DNA from: Patescibacteria group bacterium
GTDB lineage: Bacteria; Patescibacteriota; Minisyncoccia; Moranbacterales; JAKLHP01
DNA: 64,000 nucleotides
Reading direction: 5' to 3'
Assembly: GCA_043803385.1 (NCBI GenBank)
Contig: JAZDKA010000009.1
Coordinates: 3,092 to 67,091, forward strand
Both the position numbers and the translations under genes were made by a program. This document shows, piece after piece, positions 1 through 49,278 of this stretch (positions within the stretch are counted from its first letter, which is position 1; each line of letters opens with the position of its first letter). Under the pieces are notes generated by a model. The model was not told the origin of the DNA. It was given only the letters and a program-made list of their open reading frames with translations, and did not search any database.

Positions 1-722
1 CAAGATCAAACGCGGCTACTTATACGGGAATTTTTTCCCATATCAGAGATATTTTTTCCAGCCTCGAAGAATCAAAAAACAGGGGATACAGCGCCAGCCG
101 ATTCAGCTTTAATATGAAAGGCGGAAGATGCGAAGTATGTCAGGGAGACGGAAAGAAGAAAATTGAAATGTATCTGATGCCGGATATGTATGTGAAGTGC
201 GAAGGATGCGAGGGAACAAGGTATAACAAAAAAACTTTAGAAGTTGAGTTTAAAGGATTTAATATTGCCCAAATTTTAAATATGGATGTGAGTTTTGCTC
301 TTAGATTTTTTGCCAGCTACCCTTTGATCATTGAGAAACTTCGCACAATGGAAGAAGTGGGATTGGGATACTTAAAACTGGGGCAAAGCGCGACTGATTT
401 ATCCGGAGGAGAAGCGCAAAGAATAAAACTGGCGACTGAACTTGCCAGAAAATCAACCGGAAAAACATTGTATATTTTAGACGAACCGACAATCGGACTT
501 CATTTTGAAGATATTAAACGATTGCTAAAAGTGCTGGATACTCTCGTTGAAAAAGGAAATTCAGTTGTGGTTGTCGAGCACAATATAGATGTAATAAAAA
601 ATTCCGACTGGGTAGTCGAACTTGGGCCGGACGGAGGAGAAAAAGGAGGAGAAATCATTTACGAAGGAGCTCCTGACAAGATGAAAAAATGCAAAAAGAG
701 CTGGACGGCGAAGTATTTGTAA
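1..722 (+). CDS. uvrA: Excinuclease ABC subunit A, C-terminal portion; 5' end lies outside the window
   Basis: Frame 3 is open from nt 3. It reads ...TYTGIFSHIRDIF...SRFSFN.KGGRCEVCQGDG (UvrA zinc-finger/ABC signature), then LSGGEAQRIKLA (ABC signature) and ILDEPTIGLH (Walker B). Confidence 0.9.
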   Translation, partial: RSNAATYTGIFSHIRDIFSSLEESKNRGYSASRFSFNMKGGRCEVCQGDGKKKIEMYLMPDMYVKCEGCEGTRYNKKTLEVEFKGFNIAQILNMDVSFALRFFASYPLIIEKLRTMEEVGLGYLKLGQSATDLSGGEAQRIKLATELARKSTGKTLYILDEPTIGLHFEDIKRLLKVLDTLVEKGNSVVVVEHNIDVIKNSDWVVELGPDGGEKGGEIIYEGAPDKMKKCKKSWTAKYL

Positions 723-10033: not shown

Positions 10034-11158
10034 ATGTTTGAAATAGTAAACTCTAACGGGAAAAAAAGAATAGGAAAATTATTGACTAACCATGGGGAGC
10101 TCGAAACTCCCTTTTTTATGCCTGATGCGACCAGGGGATTTGTGAGGTCTTTGGATAATGAAGATTTAATTAAGGCCAGCGTCAGTCCAATAGTAGTCAA
10201 TACTTATCATCTCTACTTAAAGCCCGGAATGGAATTAATAAAAAAGGCTGGAGGCATTCATAATTTTATGAACTGGCAAAAACCTCTCCTTTCTGACTCC
10301 GGCGGATACCAAGTTTTTTCCCTGATTCACAAAAATCCAAAAATGGGAAAAATTACCAAGAATGAAGTTATCTTCAAATCTCCGTATGACGGCTCAATCC
10401 ACAAATTAACGCCCGAAAAATCAATCCAGATCCAGTTTGATCTGGGAGTGGATATGATGGTGTGCCTGGATGATCCGCCACCCAATAATTATTCCAAGGA
10501 AAAAATAGAAAAAGCGGTGGAAAGAACGATAATATGGGCGGAAAGATGCAAGAAAGAATATAATAAACAAGTTAAAAGTCGAAAGCTTAAAGTCAAAAGC
10601 CAGCCGCTTATTTTCGGAGTAATTCAGGGCGGAAAATATCTAGATCTCCGAAAGCATTGCGCGGAAGAATTGGTTAAAATCGGTTTTGATGGATATGGTT
10701 TCGGAGCCAGGCATATTGATGAGGAAGGAAATATTATGGATAAAGTCCTGGAAGAAGTGGCCAGCTACATACCGGAAAATTCCTTGCGCTTTGCTTTAGG
10801 GGTAGGAACGCCGGAAGATATTGTTAAATGCGTAAATTATGGATGGGATATGTTTGACTGCGTCATTCCGACAAGAGAAGGAAGGCACGGTCGGATTTTC
10901 GTTAGAAAATCCGAAGTCAAAAGTCAAAAGTCAAAAGTCAAAAGTGATTTCTATGAAACAATAAATATCAATAATGAGAAATATGCCAATGATTTTTCGA
11001 AAGTTGATGAAAATTGCGGCTGTGAAATGTGCCAAAATTATTCCAAATCCTATATGCGGTATTTATTCTCCCAGAAAGAGCCGATGGCCATGCGCCTCGC
11101 CAGCCTCCATAATCTAAAATTCTATATGGATTTGATGGAAAATTTAAGAAATAAATAA
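10034..11158 (+). CDS. tgt: Queuine tRNA-ribosyltransferase
   Basis: GELETPFFMPDATRG N-terminus, DSGGYQ, zinc site CGCEMCQNYS...H. Contains in-frame (GTCAAA)4 insert at 10917-10945. Confidence 0.9.
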   Translation: MFEIVNSNGKKRIGKLLTNHGELETPFFMPDATRGFVRSLDNEDLIKASVSPIVVNTYHLYLKPGMELIKKAGGIHNFMNWQKPLLSDSGGYQVFSLIHKNPKMGKITKNEVIFKSPYDGSIHKLTPEKSIQIQFDLGVDMMVCLDDPPPNNYSKEKIEKAVERTIIWAERCKKEYNKQVKSRKLKVKSQPLIFGVIQGGKYLDLRKHCAEELVKIGFDGYGFGARHIDEEGNIMDKVLEEVASYIPENSLRFALGVGTPEDIVKCVNYGWDMFDCVIPTREGRHGRIFVRKSEVKSQKSKVKSDFYETININNEKYANDFSKVDENCGCEMCQNYSKSYMRYLFSQKEPMAMRLASLHNLKFYMDLMENLRNK

Positions 11159-11211
11159 AGTTATCCACAAGGCTGGCATTGACAGAAATACTGATAGTGA
11201 TACAATATCAC
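11159..11211 (+). promoter_or_regulatory. Conserved promoter/operator module, copy A (DnaA-box-like TTATCCACA, TTGACA -35, 16 nt, palindrome GTGATACAATATCAC containing -10 TACAAT)
   Basis: Near-identical architecture at 35719..35772 and 49226..49278. Confidence 0.6.
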
Positions 11212-11411
11212 CATAGAAACATCTAAATAAAAACAAGCCATGGACCACAACGGGCGACGCTTGTTTTCCTAGATGCTATGAATAATAACATCTAATGTGA
11301 GTATAGCATCATTCAATAATCTGTCAAGTTGAAATTTTCCCGATGAGTTGATAATAAAGCCGAAATATGAGAATATTAAGATGTTGATAAATATTAAATA
11401 AACTTAAAAAT

Positions 11412-12170
11412 ATGAGTCTAGTAATCGCAACATATGTGCCGGAAGGCATAGTCATGGCGTCCGACAGCCGGCAATCTATAACGCTTGAAGGTAAAACACC
11501 CGATGGCAAAGATTTACCGAAAATCGACACAGTAAATTCCGATAACGTCTATAAAACCTATCTTATATCCAGAAAAGATAATGATGGAAAACCGATTTTT
11601 GAAATTGGCATTAGTTCTTTTGGTCAGGATCTTTTAGGCGGCATTCCCACTGCCAGCCATATAAAAAGATTCACGGAAGAAGAATTGACAGATGAAGATG
11701 ACATCACGATAATTCCCAAGAAGCTAGTTGATTTTTTTATAAAATTATTTCCAAAAGCAGACACAGGATTTCATGTTGCCGGGTATAAAAAAGAAGGAAA
11801 GATAAGTATCCCATATATTTTCAATTGTCATGTGGCTAAAAATATAGTTGAAAGAAGAAACGAAAAACCTGATAAAACATTAGCCTATGGAGCGACTTGG
11901 TCAGGACAAATCGATGTTTTGGCGGGGATTTTACAGCCCTCCGCATTGCCAGGTCCCGAGGGAAAAACTTTAACGATGCCAAAACCGCCGATAATTTGGG
12001 ACGCAATGGCGCTTCAAGACGCGATTGACTTTTCCACTTATGCGATAAGGACAACGATTGACACTATTCGTTTTCAAGCACGACCGAAAAATGTCGGTGG
12101 TCCCATTGATGTTTTAGTAATTACTCCCGATGGAGCAAAATGGATTCAAAGAAAAGAATTAAAAGGATAA
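11412..12170 (+). CDS. Hypothetical protein, possible proteasome-fold Ntn-hydrolase (Ser N-terminal nucleophile)
   Basis: MSLVIATYVPEGIVMASDSRQS resembles proteasome beta/HslV T1...GxxxxADSR spacing (nucleophile at position 2, Asp at 17). Confidence 0.3.
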   Translation: MSLVIATYVPEGIVMASDSRQSITLEGKTPDGKDLPKIDTVNSDNVYKTYLISRKDNDGKPIFEIGISSFGQDLLGGIPTASHIKRFTEEELTDEDDITIIPKKLVDFFIKLFPKADTGFHVAGYKKEGKISIPYIFNCHVAKNIVERRNEKPDKTLAYGATWSGQIDVLAGILQPSALPGPEGKTLTMPKPPIIWDAMALQDAIDFSTYAIRTTIDTIRFQARPKNVGGPIDVLVITPDGAKWIQRKELKG

Positions 12171-12180
12171 AAATAAGTTT

Positions 12181-12873
12181 ATGGAAAAAGAAATTTCTAA
12201 ATATTTGGTTGTTGATGCTTCTGGTTTAGACCCCATCAGGTATTCAATTAAAAGTGGTTGGATGAAAATGGAGGATATAAATAAATTTTTAGAGAGTGGT
12301 AAGATACAAATATGTATAACAAATTCCGCTTTACAATGTGGAGAATTTAGTTATTCTGAAACGCCAGATCTCTTTACTCATAATATAATTAATTCTGGCA
12401 CAAATTCTTCTGTGTATATTAAAGACGAAAAAGTGCTAAAACGTGGCATAAGTTTCTGGCTTACTTCTAATGGTACAATTACACTCGATCAAAGTTTATC
12501 TAAAAACGGACTAGAATTTAGTGTTTTTAATACGACAAGCGGAACTCTGTCTGATTGTTCAAAATTATCCGTTCCGGATAAATCAGCCATTTCTTTAGCA
12601 AGATATCTTTTAAATATTAAAAAGACTGCGATTCTGGTTCATGACAAAAAAATACGAAAACAAGCTCGATGTAAAAAAATTTCTTTTTATGGTTCTGCCT
12701 CATTTCTTGCAGGTATGGCTATTTCCAGGATATATGCATATCAAAAAGCTACAAGGTTGTATTATAAATGGAAAAATCAGGATAAACGTTGGATACCAAA
12801 TAAGATGAATTTTAAAGAAGTATTAGGTATTGAAAAATTACGTTTTCAAAAAGGAGAAAGTTTTTGGCTATAA
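12181..12873 (+). CDS. Hypothetical protein with basic C-terminus
   Basis: Long ORF with no recognisable motifs. Confidence 0.35.
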   Translation: MEKEISKYLVVDASGLDPIRYSIKSGWMKMEDINKFLESGKIQICITNSALQCGEFSYSETPDLFTHNIINSGTNSSVYIKDEKVLKRGISFWLTSNGTITLDQSLSKNGLEFSVFNTTSGTLSDCSKLSVPDKSAISLARYLLNIKKTAILVHDKKIRKQARCKKISFYGSASFLAGMAISRIYAYQKATRLYYKWKNQDKRWIPNKMNFKEVLGIEKLRFQKGESFWL

Positions 12874-13136
12874 CGATTAGTTTTTATCTATGAAAAATAG
12901 GACATTATATTTCGGTGATAATTTAGAAATACTCCGCAAGAAAATTACGGAAACCTTGACTTTTGGCTTAAAATACGCTATAATTAGACATAGTGAATAG
13001 AAAGCCTAGCAAAGAAGGCTTTAAAAAAGGGGAAATTGGAAGGGTGTTTCGAGGGTGAAACACTTTTTTGTTTTTTCCTGTAAATTACGCCAGCCCAAGG
13101 CTGGTCCGCCTATGGCGGAAATATGCGAATATTATT

Positions 13137-13988
13137 ATGAAAATTAAGGAATTATTTAAAAAAAGAAGGATAGTTTATTCAGCTACGGTCTTAGCTGTGT
13201 TTTTTGCCTGCTTTAATTTTGCTTTTGCCAGTGAGATTACCAGGGAAAATATTGTAAATCTGGTCAATCAGTCAAGAACGGAAAACGGGCTTCCTGCCCT
13301 TTCCGAGAACGAAAAACTCGATAAGGCCGCCCAGGACAAGGCAAATGATATGATAGCCAATAATTATTTTGCCCATACTTCTCCCAGCGGGATAACACCT
13401 TGGTTTTGGATCGAAAAAAACGGATACGATTACCAATATGCCGGAGAAAATCTGGCACTTGGATTTTCAACAGTGGAAAATGAACACCAAGCGTGGATGA
13501 ACAGCCCGACTCACAAAAAAAATATTCTTAATACTAATTATGAAGAAATTGGGGTTGCAGTTGGCAAAGGAGTGATAGAAAATAACACGGTAACTGTTGC
13601 TGTCCAAACATTTGGAACGCAAGCCGGAAGTTTAAAAGAAGAAAAAAAAGAAAATAATATTCCGGACATTAAGCCGAAAAATGATGGCAACGGAATTGTC
13701 CTTAACCTGGACGGATCAAAAAATTCCGGAAGCGGAAATTCCAGCGATTTGTTCAAGGGAAATGAATTTAAGCTCAAGGCAAACTGGTCTAGCGTGAAAG
13801 AATTTTTATCTAATCCCTGGATTGCGTCAATGGTTATCGTTCTGGCATTTTGCCTAATTATAAATATTTTTGTGCTAATGATAATATTTCTGCATCATGC
13901 CAACAACAGGTTGAGAAAAAATCAGGAAGCATTTAAAATGGTTAATACAATAATTATTCTATTGATCATTGCCTCGATAACATTCTAA
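13137..13988 (+). CDS. CAP/SCP/PR-1 domain protein (YkwD-like), N-terminal signal anchor and C-terminal TM
   Basis: NNYFAHTSPSG...GENLA...HQAWMNSPTHKKNIL CAP signature. Likely start MKIKELFKK at 13137 (track ORF extends to 13068). Confidence 0.75.
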   Translation: MKIKELFKKRRIVYSATVLAVFFACFNFAFASEITRENIVNLVNQSRTENGLPALSENEKLDKAAQDKANDMIANNYFAHTSPSGITPWFWIEKNGYDYQYAGENLALGFSTVENEHQAWMNSPTHKKNILNTNYEEIGVAVGKGVIENNTVTVAVQTFGTQAGSLKEEKKENNIPDIKPKNDGNGIVLNLDGSKNSGSGNSSDLFKGNEFKLKANWSSVKEFLSNPWIASMVIVLAFCLIINIFVLMIIFLHHANNRLRKNQEAFKMVNTIIILLIIASITF

Positions 13989-35718: not shown

Positions 35719-35772
35719 AGTTATCCACAGAGCAAAGTATTGCAATAATTCATATTAGTGATACAATATCAC
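35719..35772 (+). promoter_or_regulatory. Conserved promoter/operator module, copy B
   Basis: GTTATCCACAG, TTGCAA -35, 16 nt, GTGATACAATATCAC. Confidence 0.6.
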
Positions 35773-35783
35773 TGTAATTAAAA

Positions 35784-36005
35784 ATGCATCATAAGCTTAT
35801 GGCTCAATTCACAGAAAAACAAATTAAAAGACAAGATTTTGTGGATAATGAGATTTTTGAGTTGATTCAACAGCTTGTGCCATCCGCAAAAATTAAATGG
35901 GATATTGAGATGATAGGAAATGTTCGGGACTCAATACAGACACAGCTTGCTGATAAGCAAAAATTAATGAGCGAAACGATATTTTATCCATATCTAAAAA
36001 TATGA
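35784..36005 (+). CDS. Small hypothetical protein, first gene behind module B (possible controller/accessory of RM system)
   Basis: 73-aa ORF 12 nt after the -10 palindrome. No clear HTH. Confidence 0.35.
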   Translation: MHHKLMAQFTEKQIKRQDFVDNEIFELIQQLVPSAKIKWDIEMIGNVRDSIQTQLADKQKLMSETIFYPYLKI

Positions 36006-49225: not shown

Positions 49226-49278
49226 GGTTATCCACAGGCGAAGGGTTGCAATAGTGTTGATAAGTGATATAATATCAC
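49226..49278 (+). promoter_or_regulatory. Conserved promoter/operator module, copy C
   Basis: GTTATCCACAG, TTGCAA, 16 nt, GTGATATAATATCAC. Confidence 0.6.

Follow-up and report, generated by a model that had tools for sequence, protein, structure and literature searches.

We analysed a 64-kb stretch of a Patescibacteria contig (37% G+C; hereafter the window) and found in it two adjacent forward-strand genes, one for a proteasome-beta-like N-terminal nucleophile (Ntn) hydrolase and one for a fast-evolving partner that is probably PIN-like. The interpretation we prefer, tentatively and at slightly less than an even chance, is that the pair is a horizontally acquired cassette resembling toxin-antitoxin (TA) or abortive-infection systems, in which the hydrolase would control a nuclease-like partner by proteolysis, driven from a promoter of the type that heads restriction-modification (RM) systems in the same genome. 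An initial annotation of this DNA had suggested much the same, namely that a proteasome-fold hydrolase and a partner behind a defence-type promoter form a candidate two-gene defence or toxin module; our results support that core and sharpen it with respect to the fold, the linkage of the pair and its RM and mobile-element context. Both open reading frames (ORFs) are present as first described: gene 1 at 11412..12170 (V1804_00880, 252 aa) and gene 2 at 12181..12873 (V1804_00885, 230 aa).

The AlphaFold2 (AF2) model of gene 1 reached a predicted local distance difference test score (pLDDT) of 80.7 and a predicted template-modelling score (pTM) of 0.79, and the top 50 Foldseek matches to it in the PDB were all 20S beta subunits or Anbu, at E values of 2.5e-7 to 1.3e-5, a probability of 1.0 and TM-scores of 0.47-0.59. 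A profile built from 89 diverse family members also matched proteasome beta1 chains (E 3e-4 to 1e-3), and in the profile-to-PDB alignment S2, D18, R20 and K48 fell opposite T1, D17, R19 and K33, where T1 is Thr1 of yeast beta1. There is no propeptide and the predicted nucleophile is Ser2. Position 2 is Ser in 28 and Thr in 7 of the 35 close homologues, and one or the other in 114 of 127 diverse full-length representatives; D18, R20 and K48 do not vary within the close set and are conserved to at least 90% across the 89 diverse members. Judged by alignment and predicted structure, gene 1 is a proteasome-beta/Anbu-fold Ntn hydrolase with its catalytic residues intact. The spacing of a Ser/Thr nucleophile and Asp17 that had first hinted at an Ntn hydrolase is thus real, as Ser2 and Asp18, and both structure prediction and profile comparison return the fold. 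By its sequence the family is a distant relative that lies outside the curated Pfam Proteasome model: the window protein has no significant match to PF00227, which 26 of the 89 members matched at E<=0.1 (best 1.9e-5), and four of the 89 touched the Pfam connectase N-domain. Gene 1 had no helix-turn-helix (HTH), ribbon-helix-helix or AbrB match, and NCBIfam and PHROGs searches of both proteins returned nothing useful.

The gene 1 model has two insertions: residues 21-45, modelled at low confidence, and residues 175-200, a beta-hairpin that separates H3 from H4. Fuchs, Alva & Lupas (2021; PMC8665760) described 22 orphan proteasome-homologue subfamilies, for none of which did the genomic context suggest a function, and among which PMI variants carry insertions at S3/S4 and/or H3/H4. 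The orphan homologues (Anbu, BPH, WPH/PHI/PMI-1..6; PMC8665760) share with gene 1 the beta fold, Thr/Ser1-Asp17-Lys33, the missing propeptide and the lack of a linked AAA+ unfoldase, and the PMI variants share both of its insertions, the one between Asp17 and Lys33 as well as that separating H3 from H4. Compared with that published description, gene 1 most likely belongs to the PMI-type homologues; the reference accessions of the study (e.g. OGZ26396.1, HDY66466.1) were not among our retrieved cluster members. The orphan homologues also occur in 'other bacteria' and Euryarchaeota in a pattern shaped by horizontal gene transfer, as the gene 1 family does, but the gene 1 family differs from them in having a recurrent toxin-like partner and a linkage to RM systems. 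HslVU, like gene 1, contains a bacterial proteasome-beta homologue with an exposed N-terminal nucleophile; the gene 1 family, however, has extra insertions and in most members Ser rather than Thr, and neither HslU nor another AAA+ unfoldase appeared in the gene tables of the 10 loci inspected one by one or among the 25 Pfam families listed for the 17-locus set. Connectase (MJ0548) gave a weak N-terminal match (Pfam E 0.12 for gene 1 and 0.0011 for the best family member; PDB 6zvz E 0.043); a further shared feature is an insertion over the region that follows strand 2. Connectase differs in lacking the first helix pair and in being confined to methanogens; gene 1 matches proteasome beta better, and the connectase scores lie far below threshold.

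One fusion protein, P0272 (535 aa), places a region of about 300 aa with an RNKVSH motif N-terminal to its Ntn domain. No Pfam family matched it and its match to the HEPN partner profile was not significant; we therefore made no use of P0272 as a Rosetta-stone fusion, the identity of the region as a Cthe_2314 HEPN domain being unsupported.

For gene 2 we found only three relatives in 5.8 billion proteins, giving a family of four in which D12, E55, D133 and D155 are invariant (across only four sequences, 25-87% identical). Its AF2 model (mean pLDDT 64) shows a beta-alpha core interrupted by a disordered insertion of about 75 residues at 52-126. The top fold matches in the PDB were all of PIN type but weak (E ~0.3), Pfam PIN_4 matched one of the four members at a non-significant E of 0.17, and hhalign comparisons with single PIN and NYN proteins did not reach significance. 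The initial annotation had left this protein unannotatable; the core and the fold matches now make it probably a PIN-like nuclease, on statistics that are weak. The G+C content at third codon positions (GC3) is 0.20 in gene 2 and 0.32-0.43 in the other nearby genes checked, which marks gene 2 as foreign.

Every one of the four gene-2 family members lies immediately downstream of a gene-1 homologue, at a gap of -27 to +10 nt and in four different contexts, and the pair is thus conserved beyond the window. In the window itself the pair stands between tgt and a gene for a CAP-domain protein; in L091 it follows an NYN gene and precedes a methyltransferase (MTase); in L094 it lies between Cas1/Cas2 and Mrr plus an MTase; and in L031 it is followed by a type III Mod-Res system. 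Identities within the family are 87, 41-46 and 25-29% for the partner and 84, 67 and 64% for the Ntn protein, and the partner diverges much faster.

Another way to view the family is through the other genes that occupy the position of gene 2. A Cthe_2314-like HEPN gene stands directly downstream of the Ntn gene in 13 non-redundant loci, with Pfam matches above the cut-off, an hhalign E of 6e-42 for L089 and agreement from hmmsearch; the Rx4H motif is intact in the 12 HEPN partners in which it was checked (L089 not being among them). A two-transmembrane protein of 121 aa, small proteins and DUF6941 take the same position elsewhere, and an hhalign comparison of the HEPN and PIN-like profiles was not significant. 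Mean pairwise identity is 68% for the Ntn proteins and 37% for the HEPN proteins, and the pairwise identities of the two correlate (Pearson 0.66). Two loci with the same downstream MerR-ParA-ParB-RPA genes, L087 and L090, have Ntn proteins that are 82% identical and HEPN proteins that are 30% identical. On these gene orders, the mobile clade of gene 1 is one in which a toxin-like, swappable partner always follows. It is possible, and we hold this more loosely than the cassette interpretation, that the Ntn hydrolase is the hyper-promiscuous controlling subunit of an unrecognised family of RM-linked toxin modules whose effectors are swapped among HEPN, PIN-like and membrane proteins.

RM genes are contiguous with the Ntn gene and its partner in 10 of the 16 informative loci. 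The order Ntn-X-Mod-Res occurs with three different X (L009, L031, L092), Ntn-HEPN-HsdM-HsdS occurs in L011, and Ntn-PIN-Mrr-MTase occurs beside Cas1/Cas2 in L094. Across 17 loci with 130 neighbouring ORFs, the Pfam families that recurred most were N6_N4_Mtase, HEPN_Cthe2314, N6_Mtase, ResIII, ParA, RadC, Eco57I, NYN, Cas1 and AbiEii, and the mobile-element neighbours include ParA/ParB/RPA, TraG, recombinases and AbiE. Homologous loci are thus found on mobile elements and in defence islands, the latter a placement that the initial annotation had put forward as a check. In L088 (1-5910), a type IIG Eco57I-like enzyme, a 621-aa reverse transcriptase (RVT_1) and a 60-aa ORF are encoded directly upstream of the Ntn gene, a neighbour that may be of the DRT/retron kind.

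Ahead of the pair in the window lies a predicted sigma-70-type promoter (11179..11206, forward strand) with TTGACA at 11179-11184, a 16-nt spacer and a TG-extended TACAAT at 11201-11206; in the promoter scan 11 of 12 consensus positions matched, in addition to the TG, and transcription is predicted to start near 11212-11214. The promoter is part of a module of about 55 bp made up of the box GTTATCCACA (here 11160..11169, the first element, 9 nt upstream of the -35), 9-10 nt, TTG(A/C)AA, 12 nt and GTGATA(C/T)AATATCAC. GTGATA supplies the TG of the extended -10 and the first part of the -10 itself, and together with TATCAC it makes a 6-3-6 palindrome spanning the -10 (GTGATA-CAA-TATCAC at 11197..11211), a plausible candidate operator that all three modules have in common. 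The window holds exactly three copies, starting at 11160, 35720 and 49227, with GTTATCCACA and GTGATAyAATATCAC at the fixed spacing of 11160/11197, 35720/35758 and 49227/49264. The 15-mer GTGATAnAATATCAC has three exact matches in the 64 kb and nine (the three exact ones included) at up to two mismatches, against 0.39 expected, and none of 100 shuffles reached nine. The copy at 35720 precedes a 73-aa ORF, an N4/N6 MTase and an EcoO109I restriction endonuclease (REase), and that at 49227 precedes an Eco57I-like MTase and REase. The initial claim, a third RM-type promoter copy ahead of the pair, therefore holds: the other two copies head RM systems, and the use of this module by the pair fits a co-regulation of accessory defence genes.

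The same module, minus the long leader described below, is found ahead of a Ntn homologue in another Patescibacteria genome (L001), where the operon runs Ntn-DUF6941-121 aa-Dcm-EcoRII-like. A metagenome-wide scan recovered only two further copies, both in other contexts and neither with a Ntn gene, and from this distribution of sequence matches the module is lineage-specific. The DnaA-box consensus TTATCCACA is contained in GTTATCCACA and occurs five times in the 64 kb, against about 0.8 estimated from base composition: at 11161, 35721 and 49228 on the forward strand, each of these three preceding the -35 of a shared module by 9-10 nt, and at 35840 and 44870 on the reverse strand. The arrangement suggests that DnaA or some other factor might regulate the three accessory modules, and the use of one module with a DnaA-box-like element by all three is a hint that defence genes of the lineage are controlled together. 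The 73-aa ORF of the second copy (35784-36005, forward strand) begins 16 nt past the -10; it has no Pfam match, is placed like a controller (C) protein, had no detectable HTH, and contains the inverted TTATCCACA at 35840.

Homologues of gene 1 fell into 1929 clusters, the top 120 being 69-100% identical and nearly all 252-258 aa long, and a search made without a word index returned 857 clusters at 50% identity. The gene is present in at least 216 of 185,579 species representatives. At 49-82% identity it occurs in Patescibacteria, Cloacimonadota, Chloroflexota/Dehalococcoidia, Caldisericota, Chlamydiota, Nitrospiria, Thermoplasmatales and Methanoregula, and this scatter across phyla and domains reflects horizontal transfer. 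Gene 1 was unmatched in tblastn searches of INPHARED phages and PLSDB plasmids and was found on a single IMG/VR contig, for which reason we rejected a phage origin. In Dehalococcoidia the Ntn gene lies between dapF and dapL, and in Caldisericota (L050-L065) between ahcY and purA, usually without a partner. The Dehalococcoidia (L016, L021, L030 and others) form a natural presence/absence series, a HEPN gene standing between the Ntn gene and dapL only in some (L021, L030).

An enzyme that stays constant, a toxin-like partner that is exchanged, close coupling of the two, a place on mobile elements and in RM operons and a patchy spread across domains together make up the signature of a conflict module, and it is from this that we propose a mechanism. 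The cassette would have been inserted between tgt and the CAP-domain gene, where the lineage-specific promoter and operator would drive the pair. The hydrolase would be the constant, controlling component, probably as a self-compartmentalising oligomer, and the downstream gene an interchangeable toxic effector (HEPN, PIN-like or a small membrane protein) that the hydrolase holds latent by proteolysis. The protease would likely enter at an exposed segment such as the disordered insertion at 52-126. Once the protease was inhibited, titrated or lost, the effector would be set free, and the position of the module at the head of many RM operons would give it a second-line role. As to the direction of control, we lean towards neutralisation over activation because the conserved gene is placed first, Ntn genes persist without a partner and one protease can serve toxins that are unrelated.

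Activation is the obverse of this scheme. The partner would then be an inactive pro-effector that a latent hydrolase cleaves on an infection signal, for example by removing residues 52-126, much as protease-gated gasdermins and CRISPR-associated proteases act through activating cleavage. The strictly conserved catalytic residues, the long disordered insertion in the PIN-like partner and the defence-island context would all suit such an arrangement, as would the combination of a conserved component with variable effectors that is typical of sensor-effector defence. The hydrolase, however, has no recognisable sensor domain and is not diversifying but very strongly conserved, Ntn genes without a partner are common, and a conserved gene placed first and tightly coupled is the usual antitoxin-toxin layout; we consider activation unlikely, if deserving of attention. 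The main rival to the cassette interpretation is that gene 1 encodes a stand-alone, ATP-independent peptidase with a housekeeping or quality-control function, its neighbours being cargo of an insertion hot spot. This draws on the solo genes within the dapF-dapL and ahcY-purA strings, on very strong purifying selection, and on the absence of informative context for new proteasome homologues in the survey of Fuchs et al. (2021; PMC8665760). Hot-spot cargo would not account well for partners that are adjacent, co-oriented and often overlapping in 4/4 PIN-like and 13/13 HEPN cases, for the correlation of Ntn and HEPN identities, for HEPN genes beside Ntn genes even inside the dapF-dapL string (L021, L030), or for the sporadic distribution across domains. 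We judge a purely stand-alone role to be unlikely as well.

Several results nevertheless weigh against the cassette interpretation. RM genes do not follow the pair in the window, and in PADLOC-DB v2 gene 1 was without a match and gene 2 matched only a HORMA fragment (E 0.015). The PIN-like assignment of gene 2 carries the weak statistics given above. The hydrolase has neither a DNA-binding domain nor a linked AAA+ unfoldase, and its conservation greatly exceeds that of typical antitoxins or defence sensors. The Ntn genes of Dehalococcoidia and Caldisericota look vertically inherited, and their solo occurrence embedded among housekeeping genes indicates that the enzyme needs no partner. The context sample, moreover, consists of about 17 non-redundant close loci, which are few and biased towards long contigs.

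Among known systems, PrrC, in the EcoprrI locus, is an RM-linked latent RNase. PrrC and the RM-associated HEPN proteins (Anantharaman et al. 2013, PMC3710099) resemble the present case in placing an RNase effector in an RM operon as a presumed back-up suicide device, but those systems have no protease; in the same HEPN survey the neighbourhoods of Cthe_2314 were given as 'none detected' (PMC3710099). Hyperpromiscuous antitoxin domains (Panacea/PanA) and enzyme-antitoxin systems such as HepT-MntA (on which see PMC10440598 and PMC13000451) likewise have an upstream constant part that is combined with many toxin families, HEPN included, in a tight two-gene operon within mobile or defence-island contexts. 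The constant part here is a proteasome-like hydrolase instead of Panacea or a nucleotidyltransferase, and neutralisation by proteolysis would be new. VapBC shares the downstream PIN-like core with four acidic residues and the translationally coupled upstream gene; it differs in that the upstream gene here encodes a 252-aa enzyme and not a small DNA-binding antitoxin, and in the 75-residue insertion of the partner, whose Pfam PIN match is not significant. The same holds with respect to type II TA systems in general, whose upstream genes encode small autoregulating DNA-binding antitoxins and not enzymes.

Our literature search found no paper that links proteasome homologues to HEPN, PIN or defence, or that describes this pairing. 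The locus and its relatives give an orphan proteasome family a testable context, in the form of a coupled, swappable partner and of residence beside RM genes and on mobile elements. If the proposal is true, it would supply a functional context for an orphan proteasome homologue, the first of its kind, together with the first TA or abortive-infection system run by a proteasome-type protease. Should the hydrolase neutralise or activate the nucleases, it would introduce a new enzymatic logic to TA and abortive infection, and would place proteasome-type proteases in conflict systems of bacteria and archaea, the reduced genomes of Patescibacteria included.

Between the promoter and gene 1 the window has a long leader, which begins with an imperfect hairpin of 69 nt (11212..11280; dG -20.1 kcal/mol, z -3.0 by RNA folding). 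The inner stem pairs AAAACAAGC (11230-11238) with GCTTGTTTT (11259-11267) around a 20-nt G+C-rich loop; it comprises 9 bp, three of them G-C pairs, is A/U-rich, and is followed on the forward strand by CCUAG. The inverted repeat seen in the initial annotation thus stands, and extends further than had been noticed, whereas the T's said to follow it are its own 3' arm, after which comes CCTAG. That annotation took the hairpin for a forward-strand terminator or attenuator, or an sRNA (small RNA) of about 60 nt, and the 10-codon ORF within it (MDHNGRRLFS*, 11240-11272, forward strand) for the fossil first gene of a third RM system. Some features speak for this: the hairpin begins at the predicted transcription start and is stabler than shuffles, the ATG of the short ORF stands at a canonical distance from the -10, and Ntn-led RM operons are known from other loci. 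We nevertheless regard the idea as improbable. The hairpin departs from a canonical Rho-independent terminator in that the loop is 20 nt (not 3-8), the stem is A/U-rich and no free U-tract follows it on the forward strand, and the terminator scan did not flag 11230-11267. The ORF exists and is probably not a gene: chance would be expected to give an ATG ORF of 10 codons, 80% of shuffled versions of the intergenic region holding at least one, and when the window's RM proteins and the 73-aa ORF were compared with 11207-11411 by tblastn only noise came back, which leaves the supposed relic without similarity to the window's RM genes. The gene said to precede the promoter as part of an RM 'module A' is in fact tgt (Pfam TGT, 6.7e-119). 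Rfam searches of 11100-11450 at gathering and permissive thresholds gave best E values of 4-9, far below threshold, and attC, miniature inverted-repeat transposable element and C-box readings of the hairpin or promoter were dropped because the consensus was unmatched and no second copy lies in the window.

The ATG of the short ORF lies 33 nt past the -10. The genuine Ntn start in L001 is 34 nt from its -10 and the MTase start at the third module copy 27 nt, and this distance favours the ATG as possibly the start site of a leader or a vestige of one. Between that ATG and the Ntn start at 11412 the window is about 170 nt longer than L001; L001 has the promoter and lacks the hairpin/antisense segment, which may be the footprint of an insertion that carried an antisense promoter. 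In L091, whose cassette is the closest relative (84%/87% identical), the upstream region is unrelated. As the leader is not conserved, we take it to be a putative local regulatory add-on outside the mobile unit. Two repeats were noted in it: direct repeats TAAATAAAAAC (11224-11234) and TAAATAAAC (11395-11403) flank the extra 170 nt or so, and AACATCTAA occurs twice, at 11218 and 11287.

The earlier account of the leader omitted a strong convergent predicted promoter on the reverse strand (11327-11300), with TTGACA at 11327-11322, 16 nt and TGcTATACT, whose TATACT part is at 11305-11300 (11 of 12 matches plus the TG). It would give a predicted antisense RNA of about 70 nt (11222..11294, reverse strand) that has a 5' hairpin, a second hairpin and then UAUUUAG, and that is fully complementary to the forward-strand leader. 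The predicted fold (dG -22.5 kcal/mol, z -4.0) was equalled by 0 of 200 shuffles, and the minimum free energy structure makes up 26% of the ensemble. Because the reverse strand folds better, an antisense RNA over the leader is the better-formed candidate, one whose existence we infer from promoter match and folding; no homologue of it was found.

A strong independent promoter directly upstream of 11412, which had been raised as a possible objection to the use of the shared module, was not found, the best sites there scoring 9 of 12. Within the Ntn coding sequence a promoter-like site at 11685-11713 (forward strand; TTGACA-17-GATAAT, 11 of 12) could give the partner a transcript of its own. Downstream of the pair, between the PIN-like and CAP-domain genes, 12956-13082 (forward strand) has a promoter-like TTGACT-17-TATAAT followed by an RNA of about 85 nt with two hairpins, the second having a terminator-like stem of 14 bp and a run of U's (dG -30.6, z -4.6, equalled in 0 of 200 shuffles). 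Rfam gave nothing credible on 12860-13300 (best Yfr19, E 0.09), and the predicted fold makes this a candidate stand-alone sRNA.

The Pfam scan of the window identified recO and a gene for a DUF11 surface protein upstream of tgt, which itself ends at 11158, and the CAP-domain gene downstream of the pair; with tgt and the CAP-domain gene as its neighbours, the pair is placed between ordinary chromosomal genes and not behind an RM module. The tRNA scan yielded nothing bearing on the locus. Within tgt, an in-frame hexamer repeat (AAAGTC) occurs five times at 10915-10947 on the forward strand.

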